A stretch of 28,727 bases of DNA from NCBI GenBank assembly GCA_964016885.1, contig CAXHJY010000475.1, forward strand, positions 1 through 28,727. The letters are read 5' to 3'. Source of the stretch: Eledone cirrhosa. Lineage: Eukaryota. Shown piece by piece: positions 2,751-27,424 of the stretch (position 1 is its first letter; every line of letters begins with the position of its first letter). The position numbers were made by a program, and so were the translations under genes. Under the pieces are notes generated by a model. That model was not told the origin of the DNA and made no database searches. It saw only the letters and a program-made list of their open reading frames with translations.

Positions 2751-3009
2751 CTATTGTCATTGAATTAACGAAATCGAACAACTCTAGAAATATACCATTT
2801 ATAATAATCTCTCATACGTGATGCGTTTTATTGAACTCTTATTAAATCGATCAATGTTCAATGCCAGTTCATAAACTTCGATTAGTTCTCATGTAAAAGA
2901 AAATCAATCAAGATTCCTAACCATAAATTAACACAGCAGTTTTTATTCTGATACACTATGTTCAATATATTCAGCACCATCTTTAATAAATTTGACCCCT
3001 CCTCCTTCA

Positions 3010-3107
<98 letters not shown>

Positions 3108-3240
3108 TTCCAACATGGACGATTCATTGGGGAACCAGAGACCTTCATATCTCACAGTTAGAAATGACATCTTGTCAGAGTCCGGCCTAGTAACATTTTC
3201 ATCACCGCGATAATTTGCTCATGCTTTCTAGAGTAATTTT

Positions 3241-3279
<39 letters not shown>

Positions 3280-3444
3280 ATATTGAGAAACACACAGATA
3301 CATGCGGACACACACATATACATGAATATATCCACATCCATCCTTGAGTTAATGGTGCCAACCTTAACCGATGTTGCTCTATGAATAACTGGGACAAACC
3401 AATCCGAATGGATTAGACTGAACCAGTATCAGAGCTAAAAGCAC

Positions 3445-3817
3445 ATTATGAAGAGAGAAGAAACATTTAGATATAATTAGTAATAAGATGTATCATACCT
3501 AAACTGCTTCTAGATTCCTCGACTACGTAGTTTCGTGGCATAAACAAAAACAATACATCATAGAGATATAGAGCCTTTGCGAGGTCTGCCGACTTATCAA
3601 GAGGATACCTCGTTATACTAGCCTCAAGAGCACGTCTATATGATGTGAGATAGAATCCCAAAAGGCGGAGGGGGAGACAGTCACGTGATACAACGGTCAA
3701 GAAACAGAGCTAAGCCCCTTATAACCCCGAAAAAAATACCACAATCTCACAATCTAGAAGCAGTTTAGGTATGATACATCTTATTACTAATTATATCTAA
3801 ATGTTTCTTCTCTCTTC

Positions 3818-3822
<5 letters not shown>
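3445..3822. repeat. Perfect 72-bp inverted repeat with 234-bp spacer
   Basis: 3445-3516 is the exact reverse complement of 3751-3822; the right arm abuts (TA)n. Confidence 0.95.
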
Positions 3823-3893
<71 letters not shown>

Positions 3894-3992
3894 AAGATCG
3901 GAATTAAGAGTATTCCGCAGTTCACTGTAATAATAATAATAGTATTAGCTCAAAGAAAAAATAGAGAATTTCCTTCTGAGCTCAAATGCAAG

Positions 3993-4108
3993 TATATATT
4001 ACACAAAGAGAAGTGTGTTACACAGTGAGATGTGTGTAAAGAATTATTACGAGTGTTTTTACCGTTACTGACTCACTGTGTAACACACTTCTCTTTGTGT
4101 AATATATA
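3993..4108. repeat. 37-bp inverted repeat with 42-bp spacer (MITE-like fold-back)
   Basis: TATATATTACACAAAGAGAAGTGTGTTACACAGTGAG (3993-4029) versus its reverse complement at 4072-4108. Confidence 0.9.
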
Positions 4109-4178
<70 letters not shown>

Positions 4179-4184
4179 ATAAAT

Positions 4185-4246
4185 TTGAAGATCCCGTTAA
4201 GGGTGAAAGCAGCGATTCTTTGCTTAAACTTTAATCTGTTATTTTA

Positions 4247-4248
<2 letters not shown>
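4185..4248 (+). repeat. Degraded HHR-bearing repeat, copy 1 (copy 2 at 7916-7979)
   Basis: TTGAAGA-TCCC gttaa GGGT-GAAA-GCAG cgattct TTGC-TT; the 62-nt block 4187-4248 matches 7918-7979 with one mismatch. Confidence 0.6.
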
Positions 4249-4327
<79 letters not shown>

Positions 4328-4600
4328 ACCACTATTATAGACACCATATATATTTCCGTGGGTACCTAGTACCTACTGGGATATCTATATCATTTATCTA
4401 ATTCTCTTTAATGTAGAGAAAAAAAAATGGTGTATCATGCTGCTATTTCTAGCAGCATGAAATATCAGCGAGTCTATAATTCCCTGCTATTTCTAACGGT
4501 CCAATAAGTGTGTGGGTCATTTTAACAGCTTGATTCATTCACTGGGCAGAGGGTGATATATTTACATCTATACGGACTTATGTCTAGTAGATTTGGAAAA

Positions 4601-4680
4601 GCTATCTGAAGAGCTATATCTTTCCATTGGAAATTCTCTGAATTTCCAATCTTTTGATAAGCGAAACCGTCGGTCATGGC
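4601..4680 (+). ncRNA. Type I hammerhead ribozyme, intact core, GUC site
   Basis: Stem I GCTAT/ATGGC (extends via TCTAGT 4583-4588/ACTAGA 4681-4686); CTGAAGA 4606-4612; stem II GCT/AGC + TATC/GATA + ATTGGAAATTC/GAATTTCCAAT; GAAA 4663-4666; stem III CCG-T-CGG; predicted cut after C4675. Confidence 0.85.
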
Positions 4681-4750
4681 ACTAGAAGAGGTAAATATTT
4701 AAATCGTATTTTAATTTATTTAAAAGATTGTTTAATGTTTACTTGTTCCG

Positions 4751-4849
<99 letters not shown>

Positions 4850-4940
4850 ATATTATTCAAAATATTAACAAATGAAAAATATTCTCATAATCAAAATATA
4901 TATTTTATTACAACAATATGACCCTCCCCAAGTGTAACTA

Positions 4941-5008
4941 TATTTTATTATATATATTTCAAAGGTACTGTGTTGTTGCTTTTCAGTACGTCCTCATCAG
5001 ACAAAATA
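4941..5008 (-). ncRNA. Minimal type I hammerhead ribozyme, AUA site
   Basis: Minus strand: TATTTTGT-CTGATGA-GGACGTACTG[13 nt]CAGTACCTTT-GAAA-TATATA-TA-ATAAAATA; 8-bp stem I and palindromic stem III. Confidence 0.75.
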
Positions 5009-5236
5009 TATGATTTGATATATGACATACCGCTACGGTCTTGAATATTGAATTCCAGTATTGGCACTGATTTATTTCATCAAATCTGGAGTATAAATAA
5101 TATAACATCAAAAGATGATTAAAAGACTTCCATGTATTTTATTATGCGCATTTCAAAAACATTATTTTATTTTTTATATGTTGATTTAACACTTCACTGC
5201 TCGCAAGTGTTTTTTAAGCTTCATACCATGTCTCCC

Positions 5237-5307
5237 TATTTTATCTGATGAGAACGCAAATATCATCCCATGATGATATTTGTTTTTGAAATGCGCATAA
5301 TAAAATA
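5237..5307 (+). ncRNA. Minimal type I hammerhead ribozyme, AUA site
   Basis: TATTTTAT/ATAAAATA 8-bp stem I; CTGATGA 5245-5251; stem II includes perfect 11-bp CAAATATCATC/GATGATATTTG; GAAA 5288-5291; palindromic stem III ATGCGCAT; predicted cut after A5299. Confidence 0.82.
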
Positions 5308-5408
5308 CATGGAACTCTTAACTATCTTTTGATCTTATATTATATATATATATACTGCCAAAACTGGAATGAATCATCAGCACAGTTGTGGTATGTCAGA
5401 CATCAATT

Positions 5409-5474
5409 TATTTTATCCGAGGAGGACGTACTGATGAAACAATTCAGTACCTCTGAAATATATATAATAAAATA
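5409..5474 (+). ncRNA. Hammerhead ribozyme with U4-to-C core change (mirror copy of 4941-5008)
   Basis: TATTTTAT-CCGAGGA-GGACGTACTGA[9 nt]TCAGTACCTCT-GAAA-TATATA-TA-ATAAAATA. Confidence 0.65.
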
Positions 5475-5537
5475 TATTTGATCACACAAATGTCTATATT
5501 TATTAATATTTTGAAATAATATATATATGTATATATA

Positions 5538-5623
5538 TAGAAGTAGAAACACAACAATTAGTTCACCATACAGAGAACAATTCTTCTCTGTACGGTGAAC
5601 TAACTGTTGTGTAACCACTTCTA
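5538..5623. other. Long hairpin (29-bp stem, 6-nt loop)
   Basis: 5549-5577 pairs with 5584-5612 with two mismatches; outer TAGAAGT/ACTTCTA also pairs. Confidence 0.85.
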
Positions 5624-5677
5624 CCTAACTCGTCCCATGGACTGAGTGCTCTACCACTACGGATATTACCTTCCAGT

Positions 5678-5787
<110 letters not shown>

Positions 5788-5790
5788 TAC

Positions 5791-5842
<52 letters not shown>

Positions 5843-5866
5843 TACATATATACATGTTCACTGACA

Positions 5867-6063
5867 TCCAGAGTGTTGACACTGCACTCAGTGCTCCTGT
5901 GGGAGCCCCTACACAGACACACTAGAAGAGGGAGACCGAGGTTGACGTATGTTGATGCCCTAAGGACAGACACTGGTCTGTTGGAGATGCAGGACATGGC
6001 AGCGATAATGAGGGACAGCGACTGCTGGAGAGAACTCGTCCATGGATCTCGGGAATTTTAACC

Positions 6064-6068
<5 letters not shown>
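5867..6068 (+). mobile_element. RTE-clade LINE ORF2 C-terminal fragment (5'-truncated copy)
   Basis: [30 protein letters not shown]...[13 protein letters not shown] matches the RTE C-terminal W-x-P...RGRP...D...DR-x-x-W pattern; stop at 6061, then a (TA)n tail. Confidence 0.85.
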
Positions 6069-6100
<32 letters not shown>

Positions 6101-8940: not shown

Positions 8941-8992
8941 CATTTACCAAAGGTTTCACGAAGCCAGATGTCTGAAATCGCTCATCAAAATG
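8941..8992 (-). ncRNA. Hammerhead ribozyme with C3-to-U change, GUA site
   Basis: Minus strand: CATT-TTGATGA-GCGA...TCGT-GAAA-CC ttt GG-TA-AATG; its 5' half is repeated in inverted orientation at 9023-9044 with intact CTGATGA. Confidence 0.62.
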
Positions 8993-9119
8993 AAAAATGT
9001 AATATGCATAGTAAATGTTTCCTTCTGATGAGCGATTTCAGACGTGTCTTTATGAATGTAGCTTACAGAGAGCACTCTCCTTTCCTTTACCCTTCTACGG
9101 AAATAATTCATATATATAT

Positions 9120-9920: not shown

Positions 9921-9934
9921 AAATAATAATAATA

Positions 9935-10088
9935 TAATTATTTCTACTTTTGGCACATGGCCAGCAATTATTCCAGTGTATTACTGGTACTTTATTTTAT
10001 CGACCCCTTAAGGATGAAAGGCAAAGTTAACCTTGACGGGATTTGAACTCAGACCGTAAAGAGCCGTAACTCTATGCTGCAAAGCATG
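9935..10088 (-). mobile_element. tRNA-derived SINE, 5'-truncated
   Basis: Minus strand GAGTTCAAATCCCG..GGTTAACTTTGCCTTTCATCCTT.AGGGGTCGATAAAATAAAGTACCAGT, same family as 26857-27039. Confidence 0.85.
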
Positions 10089-12114: not shown

Positions 12115-12280
12115 TGTGGTGGATTGTCAGAATCGGGAGAGCAACGGACACCATGCTTTGCCGCATAGTGTTATGGCCCTTTACTGTCTGGGTTTAAATC
12201 TCTCCGAGGTTAGCTTTACTGTTCATCCTTACGAGGTAGAGAAAATAAAGTACCAGTCACGCACTGGGGTCAATTTCATC
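12115..12280 (+). mobile_element. Diverged tRNA-derived SINE running into the minisatellite
   Basis: TGGATTGTCAGAATCGG...GGGTTTAAATCTC.CCGAGGTTAGCTTTACTGTTCATCCTTACGAGGTAGAGAAAATAAAGTACCAGT...CTGGGGTCAAT aligns with the 26857-27039 family. Confidence 0.8.
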
Positions 12281-15200
12281 ATCAACACTACAACCATTAC
12301 CTCCACCGCCACCACTAACAACAACAACACCACCACCACCACCATCAACACTACAACCATTACCTCCACCGCCAACACTAACAACAACAACACCACCACC
12401 ACCATCTACACTACAACCATTACCTCCACCGCCACCACTAACAACAACAACAACAACACCACCACAACCATCAACACTACAACCATTACCTCCACCGCCA
12501 CCACTAACAACAACAACACCACCACCACCACCATCAACACTACAACCATTACCTCCACCGCCACCACTAACAACAACAACACCACCACCACCATCAACAC
12601 TACAACCATTACCTCCACCGCCACCACTAACAACAACAACAACACCACCACCACCACCATCAACACTACAACCATTACCCCCACCGCCACCACTAACAAC
12701 AACAACACCACCACCATCAACACTACAACCATTACCTCCACCGCCACCACTAACAACAACAACAACACCACCACCACCATCAACACTACAACCATTACCT
12801 CCACCGCCACCACTAACATCAACAACAACACCACCACCACCATCAACACTACAACCATTACCTCCACCGCCACCACTAACAACAACAACAACACCACCAC
12901 CACCACCATCAACACTACAACCATTACCCCCACCGCCACCACTAACAACAACAACAACACCACCACCACCATCATCAACACTACAACCATTACCCCCACC
13001 GCCACCACTAACAACAACAACACCACCACCACCACCACCAACACTACAACCATTACCTCCACCGCCACCACTAACAACAACAACAACACCACCACCACCA
13101 CCACCAACACTACAACCATTACCTCCACCGCCACCACTAACAACAACAACAACACCACCACCACCACCATCAACACTACAACCATTACCCCCACCGCCAC
13201 CACTAACAACAACAACAACACCACCACCACCACCATCAACACTACAACCATTACCCCCACCGCCACCACTAACAACAACAACACCACCACCACCACCACC
13301 AACACTACAACCATTACCTCCACCGCCACCACTAACAACAACAACAACACCACCACCACCACCACCAACACTACAACCATTACCTCCACCGCCACCACTA
13401 ACAACAACAACACCACCGCCATCAACACTACAACCATTACCTCCACCGCCACCACTAACAACAACAACACCACCGCCATCAACACTACAACCATTACCTC
13501 CACCGCCACCACTAACAACAACAACAACACCACCACCACCACCACCAACACTACAACCATTACCTCCACCGCCACCACTAACAACAACAACACCACCGCC
13601 ATCAACACTACAACCATTACCTCCACCGCCACCACTAACAACAACAACAACAACACCACCACCACCATCAACACTACAACCATTACCTCCACCGCCACCA
13701 CTAACAACAACAACAACAACACCACCACCACCATCAACACTACAACCATTACCTCCACCGCCACCACTAACAACAACAACACCACCACCACCACCACCAA
13801 CACTACAACCATTACCTCCACCGCCACCACTAACAACAACAACACCACCACCACCACCACCAACACTACAACCATTACCCCCACCGCCACCACTAACAAC
13901 AACAACAACACCACCACCACCATCAACACTACAACCATTACCTCCACCGCCACCACTAACAACAACACCACCACCACCACCACCATCCACACTACAACCA
14001 TTACCCCCACCGCCACCACTAACAACAACAACAACACCACCACCACCATCAACACTACAACCATTACCTCCACCGCCACCACTAACAACAACAACAACAC
14101 CACCACCACCACCACCATCAACACTACAACCATTACCTCCACCGCCACCACTAACAACAACAACAACACCACCACCACCACCATCAACACTACAACCATT
14201 ACCTCCACCGCCACCACTAACAACAACAACAACAACACCACCACCACCACCATCAACGCTACAACCATTACCCCCACCGCCACCACTAACAACAACAACA
14301 ACACCACCACCACCATCAACACTACAACCATTACCTCCACCGCCACCACTAACAACAACAACAACACCACCACCACCACCATTAACACTACAACCATTAC
14401 CCCCACCGCCACCACTAACAACAACACCACCACCACCACCACCATCAACACTACAACCATTACCCCCACCGCCACCACTAACAACAACAACAACACCACC
14501 ACCACCATCAACACTACAACCATTACCCCCACCGCCACCACTAACAACAACAACACCACCACCACCACCATCAACACTACAACCATTACCCCCACCGCCA
14601 CACCACCACCACCATCAACACTACAACCATTACCCCCACCGCCACCACTAACAACAACACCACCACCACCACCACCATCAACACTACAACCATTACCCCC
14701 ACCGCCACCACTAACAACAACAACACCACCACCACCACCATCAACACTACAACCATTACCCCCACCGCCACACCACCACCACCATCAACACTACAACCAT
14801 TACCCCCACCGCCACCACTAACAACAACACCACCACCACCACCACCATCAACACTACAACCATTACCCCCACCGCCACCACTAACAACAACAACACCACC
14901 ACCACCACCATCAACACTACAACCATTACCCCCACCGCCACACCACCACCACCATCAACACTACAACCATTACCCCCACCGCCACCACTAACAACAACAC
15001 CACCACCACCACCACCATCAACACTACAACCATTACCCCCACCGCCACCACTAACAACAACAACAACACCACCACCACCATCAACACTACAACCATTACC
15101 CCCACCGCCACCACTAACAACAACAACAACACCACCACCACCACCATCAACACTACAACCATTACCCCCACCGCCACACCACCACCACCATCAACACTAC

Positions 15201-18200
15201 AACCATTACCCCCACCGCCACCACTAACAACAACAACAACACCACCACCACCATCAACACTACAACCATTACCCCCACCGCCACCACTAACAACAACAAC
15301 AACACCACCACCACCACCATCAACACTACAACCATTACCCCCACCGCCACACCACCACCACCATCAACACTACAACCATTACCCCCACTGCCACCACTAA
15401 CAACAACAACAACACCACCACCACCATCAACACTACAACCATTACCCCCACCGCCACCACTAACAACAACAACACCACCACCACCACCATCAACACTACA
15501 ACCATTACCCCCACCGCCACACCACCACCACCATCAACACTACAACCATTACCCCCACTGCCACCACTAACAACAACAACAACACCACCACCACCACCAA
15601 CACTACAACCATTACCCCCACCGCCACCACTAACAACAACAACAACAACACCACCACCACCACCAACACTACAACCATTACCTCCACCGCCACCACTAAC
15701 AACAACACCACCACCACCATCAACACTACAACCATTACCCCCACCGCCACCACTAACAACAACAACACCACCACCACCACCACCATCAACACTACAACCA
15801 TTACCCCCACCGCCACCACTAACAACAACAACAACACCACCACCACAACCATCAACACTACAACCATTACCCCCACCGCCACCACTAACAACAACAACAA
15901 CAACACCACCACCATCAACACTACAACCATTACCTCCACCGCCACCACTAACAACAACAACAACAACAACAACACCACCATCAACACTACAACCATTACC
16001 TCCACCGCCACCACTAACAACAACAACAACAACACCACCACCATCAACACTACAACCATTACCTCCACCGCCACCACTAACAACAACAACAACAACAACA
16101 ACACCACCATCAACACTACAACCATTACCTCCACCGCCACCACTAACAACAACAACAACAACACCACCACCACCATCAACACTACAACCATTACCCCCAC
16201 CGCCACCACTAACAACAACAACACCACCACCACCACCATCAACACTACAACCATTACCTCCACCGCCACCACTAACAACAACAACAACACCACCACCACC
16301 ATCAACACTACAACCATTACCTCCACCACCACCACTAACAACAGCAACACCACCACCACCACCACCACCATCAACACTACAACCATTACCTCCACCGCCA
16401 CCACTAACAACAACAACAACACCACCACCACCATCAACACTACAACCATTACCTCCACCGCCACCACTAACAACAACAACAACAACACCACCACCACCAT
16501 CAACACTACAACCATTACCCCCACCGCCACCACTAACAACAACAACACCACCACCATCAACACTACAACCATTACCTCCACCGCCACCACTAACAACAAC
16601 AACAACACCACCACCACCATCAACACTACAACCATTACCTCCACCGCCACCACTAACAACAACAACAACAACACCACCACCACCATCAACACTACAACCA
16701 TTACCCCCACCGCCACCACTAACAACAACAACACCACCACCATCAACACTACAACCATTACCTCCACCGCCACCACTAACAACAACAACACCACCACCAC
16801 CACCACTACCATCAACACTACAACCATTACCTCCACCGCCACCACTAACAACAACAACAACACCACCACCACCATCAACACTACAACCATTACCTCCACC
16901 ACCACCACTAACAACAACAACAACACCACCACCACCATCAACACTACAACCATTACCTCCACCGCCACCACTAACAACAACAACAACACCACCACCACCA
17001 TCAAAACTACAACCATTACCTCCACCGCCACCACTAACAACAACAACAACACCACCACTACCATCAACACTACAACCATTACCTCCACCGCCACCACTAA
17101 CAACAACAACAACACCACCACCACCATCAACACTACAACCATTACCTCCACCACCACCACTAACAACAACAACAACACCACCACCACCATCAACACTACA
17201 ACCATTACCTCCACCGCCACCACTAACAACAACAACACCACCACCACCACCATCAACACTACAACCATTACCTCCACCGCCACCACTAACAACAACAACA
17301 ACACCACCACTACCATCAACACTACAACCATTACCTCCACCGCCACCACTAACAACAACAACAACACCACCACCACCATCAACACTACAACCATTACCTC
17401 CACCACCACCACTAACAACAACAACAACACCACCACCACCATCAACACTACAACCATTACCTCCACCGCCACCACTAACAACAACAACAACACCACCACC
17501 ACCATTACCTCCACCGCCACCACTAACAACAACAACACCACCACAACCATCAACACTACAACCATTACCTCCACCGCCACCACTAACAACAACAACACCA
17601 CCACAACCATCAACACTACAACCATTACCTCCACCGCCACCACTAACAACAACAACAACACCACCACCACCATCAACACTACAACCATTACCTCCACCGC
17701 CACCACTAACAACAACAACAACAACACCACCACCATCAACACTACAACCATTACCTCCACCGCCACCACTAACAACAACAACAACACCACCACCACCATT
17801 ACCTCCACCGCCACCACTAACAACAACAACACCACCACAACCATCAACACTACAACCATTACCTCCACCGCCACCACTAACAACAACAACACCACCACAA
17901 CCATCAACACTACAACCATTACCTCCACCGCCACCACTAACAACAACAACAACACCACCACCATCAACACTACAACCATTACCTCCACCGCCACCACTAA
18001 CAACAACAACACCACCACCACCACCATCAACACTACAACCATTACCTCCACCGCCACCACTAACAACAACAACAACACCACCACCACCATCAACACTACA
18101 ACCATTACCTCCACCGCCACCACTAACAACAACAACAACAACACCACCACCATCAACACTACAACCATTACCTCCACCGCCACCACTAACAACAACAACA

Positions 18201-20044
18201 ACAACACCACCACAACCATCAACACTACAACCATTACCTCCACCGCCACCACTAACAACAACAACAACACCACCACCATCAACACTACAACCATTACCTC
18301 CACCGCCACCACTAACAACAACAACACCACCACCACCACCATCAACACTACAACCATTACCTCCACCGCCACCACTAACAACAACAACAACAACACCACC
18401 ACCATCAACACTACAACCATTACCCCCACCGCCACCACTAACAACAACAACAACACCACCACCACCATCAACACTACAACCATTACCTCCACCGCCACCA
18501 CTAACAACAACAACAACAACAACAACACCACCACCATCAACACTACAACCATTACCTCCACCGCCACCACTAACAACAACAACACCACCACAACCATCAA
18601 CACTACAACCATTACCTCCACCGCCACCACTAACAACAACAACAACACCACCACCACCATCAACACTACAACCATTACCTCCACCGCCACCACTAACAAC
18701 AACACCACCACCACCACCATCAACACTACAACCATTACCTCCACCGCCACCACTAACAACAACAACAACACCACCACCACCATCAACACTACAACCATTA
18801 CCTCCACCGCCACCACTAACAACAACAACAACAACACCACCACCATCAACACTACAACCATTACCCCCACCGCCACCACTAACAACAACAACAACACCAC
18901 CACCACCATCAACACTACAACCATTACCTCCACCGCCACCACTAACAACAACAACAACAACAACAACACCACCACCATCAACACTACAACCATTACCTCC
19001 ACCGCCACCACTAACAACAACACCACCACCACCACCATCAACACTACAACCATTACCTCCACCGCCACCACTAACAACAACAACAACACCACCACAACCA
19101 TCAACACTACAACCATTACCCCCACCGCCACCACTAACAACAACAACACCACCACCACCATCAACACTACAACCATTACCCCCACCGCCACCACTAACAA
19201 CAACAACAACACCACCACCACCATCAACACTACAACCATTACCTCCACCGCCACCACTAACAACAACAACAACACCACCACCATCAACACTACAACCATT
19301 ACCCCCACCGCCACCACTAACAACAACAACAACAACACCACCACCATCAACACTACAACCATTACCCCCACCGCCACCACTAACAACAACAACAACAACA
19401 CCACCACCATCAACACTACAACCATTACCCCCACCGCCACCACTAACAACAACAACAACAACACCACCACCATCAACACTACAACCATTACCTCCACCGC
19501 CACCACTAACAACAACAACAACACCACCACAACCATCAACACTACAACCATTACCCCCACCGCCACCACTAACAACAACAACACCACCACCACCATCAAC
19601 ACTACAACCATTACCCCCACCGCCACACCACCACCACCATCAACACTACAACCATTACCCCCACCGCCACACCACCACCACCATCAACACTACAACCATT
19701 ACCCCCACCGCCACCACTAACAACAACAACAACACCACCACCACCATCAACACTACAACCATTACCTCCACCGCCACCACTAACAACAACAACAACACCA
19801 CCACCATCAACACTACAACCATTACCCCCACCGCCACCACTAACAACAACAACAACAACACCACCACCATCAACACTACAACCATTACCCCCACCGCCAC
19901 CACTAACAACAACAACAACACCACCACCACCATCAACACTACAACCATTACCTCCACCGCCACCACTAACAACAACAACAACACCACCACCATCAACACT
20001 ACAACCATTACCCCCACCGCCACCACTAACAACAACAACAACAA
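12277..20044. repeat. 7.8-kb minisatellite, unit ATCAACACTACAACCATTACC(T/C)CCACCGCCACCACT(AAC)n(ACC)m, ~57-66 bp, roughly 130 copies
   Basis: Direct inspection; constant 36-nt core plus two variable triplet runs; occasional 44-bp frame-breaking units. Confidence 0.98.
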
Positions 20045-25417: not shown

Positions 25418-25477
25418 TATTTTATCTGATGAAAACACACTAAAATGTTGTGCCCTTGAAATACATATAATAAAATA
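25418..25477 (+). ncRNA. Minimal type I HHR, same family as 5237-5307, eroded stem II
   Basis: TATTTTAT-CTGATGA (25426-25432)-...CACA/TGTG...-GAAA (25458-25461)-TACATA-TA-ATAAAATA; downstream ATACTCCAGAT is shared with the minus strand of 5084-5094. Confidence 0.65.
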
Positions 25478-26856: not shown

Positions 26857-26860
<4 letters not shown>

Positions 26861-27039
26861 GTTTCTACTTTTGGCACAACGCCAGCAATTACCCAGTGTA
26901 TTACTGGTACTTTATTTTATCGACCCCATAAGGATGAAAGGCAAAGTTAACCTCGGCGGGATTTGAACTCAGAATGACAAGGGCCGTAACTCTATGCGTC
27001 AAAGCATGGCGTCCGACCCTCTACCGATACTGCCAATCC
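26857..27039 (-). mobile_element. Near-full-length tRNA-derived SINE (Meta-domain-like centre)
   Basis: A box TGGCAGTATCGG, B box GAGTTCAAATCC, centre GGTTAACTTTGCCTTTCATCCTTATGGGGTCGATAAAATAAAGTACCAG; the Meta-domain naming is from recall. Confidence 0.85.
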
Positions 27040-27424
27040 ACTGATATATAATGTGCAGTATATATGTAACAAAAGAAAGAAATGGAACTTGAGGTGAGAA
27101 GATCTCTCCAACCAACCTTTCTATACCCCACTCTCAATATCATAGGCCCCCACCCCACCCACACACAGGGCCCTCTCTTCATGTCAAGTCTAGGCATGAA
27201 AGCCACAGATTCCACTATTGATTTCACTTGTACATACGTTGCAAATCAATATCGCTCATCTGGTTGATCTGATTTTCTTTAAGCAGATATATCTCAACAC
27301 CTCACACGTGTCGGCCATTAGGCCGTCTTTTTCTATTGTTGCTGTTACTGTTGTTGTTGTTGTTGTTGATACAGTTGTTGCTGCTGTAGTTGTTATTGTT
27401 GTTGTTGTAGCTGTTGTTGTTGTT

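Follow-up and report, generated by a model that had tools for sequence, protein, structure and literature searches.

A type I hammerhead motif in a truncated repeat copy

The window, by which we mean the whole stretch of DNA analysed here, is a complete, microsatellite-rich contig of 28,727 nucleotides (28.7 kb) from the 3.0-Gb genome of Eledone cirrhosa. Its segment 4001-5000 has a GC content of 24%, microsatellites counted in, and holds a partial copy of a repeat unit between two (TA)n tracts. The features of this copy, with + positions counted from the ribozyme cut site, are as follows.

4246 to 4324, no strand: left (TA)n target flank, read from the sequence
4325 to 4753, plus strand: 5'-truncated copy of a retrozyme unit of ~466 nt (unit positions 117-466, then 1-78, from the cut site), 96-98% identical to dispersed copies
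4358 to 4384, plus strand: small hairpin (4358-4376) followed by the distal-fixed-end sequence; +172 is G4380 in the preceding unit turn
4583 to 4600, plus strand: 5' strand of distal stem I and 12-nt bulge, with GGAAA within the bulge at 4595-4599
4601 to 4680, plus strand: minimal type I hammerhead (stem I 4601-4605/4676-4680, stem II base 4613-4615/4660-4662, GAAA, stem III 4666-4674)
4621 to 4625, plus strand: UUUCC of the stem II internal loop, which is predicted to pair with GGAAA at 4595-4599 as a pseudoknot
4626 to 4650, plus strand: 11-bp hairpin capping stem II, with compensatory pairs in sister families
4676 to 4753, plus strand: 78-nt post-cut segment ending at the proximal fixed 3' end, a likely RT start, with ATAT common to it and the target
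4754 to 4853, no strand: right (TA)n target flank, read from the sequence

Judged from its sequence, the segment 4583-4686 is a genuine type I hammerhead motif, with a predicted cut after C4675. The core from C3 to A9 reads CUGAAGA (4606-4612, plus strand), G10.1 (G4613) pairs with C11.1 (C4662), GAAA occupies 4663-4666, and stem III joins ACC at 4666-4668 to GGU at 4672-4674 within ACCG-U-CGGU, leaving a 3-nt loop in the monomer. The GUC triplet at 4673-4675 places the predicted cut at 4675/4676. Proximal stem I (4601-4605/4676-4680) has 5 bp including one G-U, and is separated by the 12-nt bulge at 4589-4600 from a distal stem I of 6 bp (4583-4588/4681-4686). From its base, stem II comprises 3 bp, a bulged A, a further 4 bp, a 5x5 internal loop and, at its tip, a perfect hairpin of 11 bp (4626-4636/4640-4650) closed by a 3-nt loop. 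The motif thus has the type I core pattern (CUGANGA, GAAA and UH with A15.1-U16.1) and the type I layout, in which stems I, II and III surround the core and stem I is open. A preliminary description of this DNA had read the canonical core, the G10.1-C11.1 pair, the GUC site, the perfect hairpin extending stem II and the resumption of stem I past the bulge correctly, as confirmed by the sequence and a motif scan; its choice of this motif as the best-formed ribozyme also agrees with the scan, in which it ranked first across the window.

Dinucleotide shuffles of 4331-5720 gave any strict hammerhead hit in 7 of 2000 cases, and in 0 of 2000 when stems I, II and III were required to have at least 5, 3 and 2 bp, respectively; the folding z-score of the motif is -2.07. 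Among the matches listed, no Rfam hammerhead model matched the motif at E <= 10, probably because stem II is unusually long.

The copy amounts to less than one turn of the unit (~435 nt), with one ribozyme and one cut site, rather than the two ribozymes that denote an "active" retrozyme copy in the portion of Li et al. 2026 used here. Window positions 2940-6074 are duplicated on the chromosome-scale contig C26 (G000:C26:2330642-2333942, locus L002), with 100% identity over the ribozyme region and 96-99% in the flanks; the window contig could represent an alternative haplotype. Directly past the cut site, the sequence AGGUAA (4689-4694, about +14) resembles a splice donor, and an acceptor-like UUUACAG occurs ~75 nt beyond it, at about +82 to +88; the pair resembles the short introns of the 5' regions of Penelope-like elements (PLEs), and the proximal fixed end lies inside it.

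Copy number of the family and conservation of the ribozyme fold

The exact motif is found 174 times genome-wide, 299 times when sister families are included, and 198 times with an anchor pattern, while searches with reversed patterns returned 0 to 1 matches (0 against 174 and 1 against 299). A looser superfamily pattern yielded 1050 matches, against 3 in its control. Many of the best 40 candidates scored from a similarity search with 4325-4753 were 96-98% identical to the query. The unit, once mapped onto its natural form, is a circularly permuted repeat of 466-470 nt, and it also forms a 28-unit tandem array of 13.3 kb (C3:162.363-162.376 Mb) with (TA)n at start and end. The longest stop-free frame in the unit spans 58 codons, the array is free of ORFs, and the unit carries neither the RT nor the GIY-YIG ORF that would mark an autonomous PLE; no LTR layout was seen among 73 distinct loci. 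A SINE-like insert of 186 nt occurs twice in the tandem array (L091:2886-3070 and 5419-5600), which indicates that array growth proceeded partly by duplication after insertion. The family and its sister families are also present in three sequencing runs from one sample, of unstated kind, which have no bearing on expression. Young dispersed copies, array copies left out, displayed no A>G excess of the sort expected from RNA-editing scars (41 private A>G against 39 T>C, p 0.31).

Among 100 ungapped copies within 10 substitutions of 4583-4686, deduplicated by context only, 12 are identical to it and all others differ by at most 10 substitutions, so that the window motif is an ordinary family sequence. 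The view that the locus is a top candidate for retained activity is not supported as a property of this site: the sequence is common to the family, and the copy, having a single ribozyme, offers no second one in cis with which to form a dimer. The ribozyme is real, but the preliminary description took youth and family identity for locus-specific preservation.

Sister families, retrieved by downstream sequence, stem III and bulge patterns, indicate which parts of the fold are maintained. In a 30-row alignment, whose rows are related and whose shuffle counts are not to be read as probabilities, pairing is kept in 92% of cells for proximal stem I, 93% for the hairpin and 99% for stem III, as against 67% for the distal extension. 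The core CUGA(A/U)GA was recovered in 132 of 144 distinct regions (with a regular expression allowing one change), and anchor-based inspection of these regions found stem I pair 2 as A-U, U-A or G-C and stem II pair 3 as U-A or C-G. Compensatory pairs in the hairpin across sister families include U-A/C-G, A-U/G-C and G-C/A-U, whereas stem III is nearly invariant and therefore carries no covariation signal. The best register of the distal stem I extension shifts from family to family (144 regions), and the meaning earlier attached to this extension is not supported, its pairing not being conserved in register.

The bulge does resemble the loop 1 contact it was first taken for, although a Watson-Crick pseudoknot is indicated and not the customary non-canonical interaction. 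Of 144 regions, a set partly selected on GGAAA, 119 carry both the GGAAA of the bulge and the UUUCC of the stem II loop; this count is anchor-based, because a one-base shift between families in the alignment made one pseudoknot column score poorly there. A distant family, whose period is 486-487 nt and whose ends lie near +76 and +188, has GAGAA along with UUCUC in 31 of its 33 rows (36 before the removal of 3 that belonged to other families); both sides of two pairs are thus changed, in what is a single evolutionary lineage. The pattern supports direct pairing of GGAAA (4595-4599) with UUUCC (4621-4625), which would form a Watson-Crick pseudoknot if the core is folded. The same strands may alternatively close a hairpin over the core, and the sequence alone fits either arrangement; the inference of a pseudoknot is further weakened somewhat by an upstream hairpin able to take up GAGAA in the distant family.

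Folding models without pseudoknots favour the alternative: for the window sequence, the active monomer fold lies a predicted 3.6 kcal/mol above the minimum, the core-sequestering hairpin has p ~0.7 and stem III pairing p ~0.1, which likewise speaks against ranking this copy high for retained activity. The active fold lies above the predicted minimum in 6 of 6 family representatives, by 1.2-9.8 kcal/mol. For stem III, the computed energies are +0.4 kcal/mol as a monomer hairpin and -11.3 kcal/mol as an intermolecular duplex, values that would make cleavage in a dimer plausible, as the near-palindromic stem had initially suggested, and that match the dimer model as it appears in the part of Cervera and de la Pena 2014 (PMC4209133) considered here.

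Two fixed insertion ends and a candidate partner

The array locus L046 was set aside at the outset; of 89 fetched loci, 73 distinct ones with 100 arms remained once overlaps had been merged and the duplicate of the window locus dropped. The 3' ends of these arms fall at +76 to +85 in 67 cases and at +171 to +198 in 27, with 6 elsewhere; 94 of 100 arms therefore finish at either of two fixed positions, roughly +78 or +172 from the cut. Because the locus query favours long arms, the ratio of proximal to distal ends is biased, while the two positions are unaffected. ATAT is common to the target and to both fixed ends. An apparent further class of ends at +137 was rejected as an artefact of an internal ATATAT run. 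Back-to-back pairs of arms (L043, L059 and L081 left out as complex or separate insertions) combine one end of each kind in 20 of 23 cases and include one irregular end in the remaining 3; none has the same end twice. Arms crossing two cut sites were found at 17 of 73 loci, and an arm of this kind implies a template longer than the cut monomer, either a circle or an uncut multimer. One example of a natural copy with two ribozymes is G000:C1:228871524-228874677. Exact one-turn copies, with 5-6 starts at +78, were not taken as evidence for circles, since ATAT microhomology gives equal hotspots elsewhere.

If cut RNA served occasionally as template, some copies should start at +1. The upstream C is missing in 11 of the 198 anchor matches; 6 of these are substitutions and 5 start at the cut site, 3 of them after (TA)n, where the AT may be target-derived, and 2 at inversion junctions. 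Among the 82 dispersed anchors on C1-C3 (the 100 listed out of 198 in total, less the 18 units of the array), starts within 0-2 nt of the cut number 4, where 0.85 would be expected (p 0.011; p 0.054 if one correction made by eye is left out). At least 4 starts also occur in 3 of 154 other 3-nt windows, all at TA-like microhomologies. This excess is suggestive of cut RNA sometimes templating insertion in vivo.

The arms bear the marks of PLE insertion, namely 5' truncation, an inverted second arm, two fixed 3' ends and a microsatellite target. In the parts of the literature drawn on here, PLEs are credited with truncation, inverted copies, a 30-40-bp tail and a microsatellite bias (Craig et al. 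2021, PMC8557442), the tail is shown to reach from one internal RT start site to a second (Frangieh et al. 2024, PMC11167929), and mobilisation of retrozymes by PLEs has already been proposed (PMC7229834; 10.64898/2026.07.22.740005). The same genome holds an intact element with RT and GIY-YIG domains (Pfam) whose tandem unit measures 3127 nt. It shows the same layout, its two end sites lying near +123 and +163 in (TA)n and accounting for 24 of the 26 ends listed (with one locus entered twice). We infer that the retrozyme is moved in trans by PLE proteins. In a blastn comparison of the unit with 40 loci of or around the PLE family examined, only retrozyme copies matched, not PLE repeats; no autonomous element sharing unit sequence was found, one PLE family having been examined in depth.

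A very young intact PLE lies in tandem at L127:519-6345 (G000:C2:200831000-200840000), many 900-codon frames occur genome-wide, and the pseudo-LTR of this element contains a minimal hammerhead-like motif with the core variant CCGAAGA. At L093:980-4046 (G000:C4:90839500-90846500), a retrozyme arm is fused without intervening (TA)n to a truncated PLE on the opposite strand. Both outer ends of this composite are in (TA)n and both are of the distal type; we rejected it as proof of a partnership between retrozyme and PLE, as two distal ends misfit a single co-insertion.

Proposed life cycle, alternatives and neighbouring repeats

With a probability of roughly 0.82, we consider the motif to be the hammerhead of a non-coding metazoan non-LTR retrozyme, of which the window holds a truncated copy, likely PLE-inserted. 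The features of retrozyme identity that can be tested in sequence are present, with cleavage, expression and circularity putative. As far as the relevant sections of Cervera and de la Pena 2020 (PMC7229834) and Li, Clavereau and Pollet 2026 (10.64898/2026.07.22.740005) go, metazoan non-LTR retrozymes are likewise non-coding, AT-rich tandem units with one type I hammerhead each, occurring as monomers, dimers and long arrays alongside PLEs; the 466-470 nt seen here compare with unit lengths of 150-450 in the former and 51-972 in the latter. Distinct from these known retrozymes are the very long stem II and the predicted Watson-Crick loop contact (the word "pseudoknot" is absent from PMC7229834), together with insertion traits that the same sections do not describe for retrozymes, namely arms in inverted orientation, a pair of fixed ends and targeting of (TA)n.

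In the proposed cycle, tandem copies would be transcribed and their hammerheads would cut after GUC, likely with the help of palindromic stem III strands paired in a dimer and of the bulge-loop pseudoknot, and the unit RNAs would likely be circularised. A Penelope-like RT/GIY-YIG protein would then nick a (TA)n target, and reverse transcription would begin inside the RNA, at ~+78 on one target strand and ~+172 on the other, such two-strand priming yielding 5'-truncated arms, often back-to-back. The window copy, if transcribed, could be cut once without release of a unit-length RNA and is likely a dead-end offspring. For arms beyond one unit length, uncut multimeric RNA could equally serve as the source. 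Of 9 retrozyme dimers predicted in Xenopus, 8 failed to cleave in vitro, according to the part of 10.64898/2026.07.22.740005 cited here.

The resemblance to EN+ PLEs extends, in the excerpts of PMC8557442, PMC11167929 and PMC4209133 relied on here, to 5' truncation, partial tandems, an adjacent inverted copy, two fixed 3' ends past the hammerhead, microsatellite targeting and a palindromic stem III suited to dimers. By comparison with those excerpts, the present unit has no ORF, its ribozyme is full-size rather than of the minimal PLE type, and its tail of ~95 nt exceeds the usual 30-40 (PMC8557442), a difference that counts against a PLE partner; nor does it match the sequence of the one PLE family examined. 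An unlikely alternative is that the unit is the pseudo-LTR of an unseen autonomous PLE, its copies being the 5'-truncated ends of that element and its hammerhead a weak, protein-assisted PLE ribozyme. The PLE-like tail, inversions and (TA)n targeting would all be explained, the donor-like site at +14 and the acceptor-like site near +88 recall PLE 5' introns, and PLE copies are mostly truncated (PMC8557442, in the passages used). However, across 73 loci and 82 anchored copies, arms continue upstream into the unit, and in no case into an ORF of matching orientation, by-eye screens of L001-L092, L133-L202 and L245-L274 found no ORF continuous with the unit, and the 28-unit array is ORF-free.

It is quite improbable that the family spreads as described with a ribozyme mostly switched off or vestigial, uncut multimeric transcripts serving as templates. 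The predicted dominance of the core-sequestering hairpin over stem III pairing would fit such a course, as would the fact that merely 4 of 82 anchored copies begin at the cut site and the finding for the anole element PAc that uncut RNA is the main template (from the portion of PMC11167929 considered). Against it, families ~70% identical or less retain the core, the stems and the pseudoknot pair through compensatory changes, which implies that the fold of the ribozyme is under selection in master copies, and the excess of cut-site starts hints at cut RNA in vivo. Co-option of the window locus by the host as a functional ribozyme under selection is very improbable: the motif is intact there, but as the common sequence of a young family, so that intactness reflects youth, amid microsatellite-rich repeat DNA with no gene context seen.

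Going beyond the retrozyme reading itself, we tentatively propose, as a possibility we hold to be doubtful, that these families form a two-state hammerhead superfamily, in which a covarying Watson-Crick pseudoknot would aid multimer cleavage and a core-hiding hairpin would protect the circle, and whose scars would record Penelope priming on both strands, at sites ~95 nt apart, of circular or multimeric and sometimes cut linear RNA. [quoted passage not shown] 2011 (PMC3088659) used for comparison. Those pseudoknotted hammerheads resemble ours in this predicted contact, and U10.1-U11.1 variants occur both among them and in our sister families. They differ, to the same extent of that source, in that here a stem I bulge would pair with a stem II internal loop in an animal mobile repeat, and the pseudoknot strands may instead close a core-sequestering hairpin. 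If true, the two-state proposal would document the suggested retrozyme life cycle directly in genomic sequence and would supply an off-switch based on self-pairing, a feature that PMC7229834, in the sections at hand, did not detect in most retrozymes of animals.

Elements of this class have been described before, and taken singly the locus is unremarkable; what makes the family valuable is that it offers a compact, testable system for two questions on animal retrozymes. One concerns the inserting enzyme, for which the fixed start sites are assayable with the intact PLE protein of the same genome. The other is how a ribozyme may be on in multimers and off in circles, for which GAGAA/UUCUC provides a natural rescue control. 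Our literature search, which covered few subscription papers and no supplements, returned no paper on cephalopod retrozymes or retrozyme tails, although an earlier description is possible; the words "ribozyme" and "retrozyme" are absent from the main text of an octopus repeat annotation (PMC13282606).

Several other repeats occur in the window. Back-to-back arms at 4936-5161 (minus strand) and 5281-5479 (plus strand), ~76% identical, belong to a different hammerhead-bearing repeat, with motifs at 5000-4949 (minus), 5245-5299 (plus) and 5417-5466 (plus) that have an AU-rich stem I and a palindromic stem III; one core reads CCGAGGA, and parts of this repeat were found again in 15 other fetched loci. 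A minimal hammerhead at 25426-25469 (plus) is a relative of that family. Another GUC hammerhead, at 26782-26704 (minus), likewise has G10.1-C11.1 and an extended stem II, but its stem I is only 3 bp and it is truncated against (TA)n. At 8988-8945 (minus), a variant hammerhead with a U3 core (UUGAUGA), similar to motifs in L183 and L192, is adjoined by a 74-nt inverted repeat (8970-9043). Elements similar to the SINE-like array insert are found at about 26857-27040 (minus), 9932-10088 and 12119-12268. Finally, 12280-20043 is occupied by a CAC/AAC-rich tandem array of a 63-nt unit, with more than 110 copies and stop-free frames of up to 1607 codons, a candidate satellite or mucin-like repeat.
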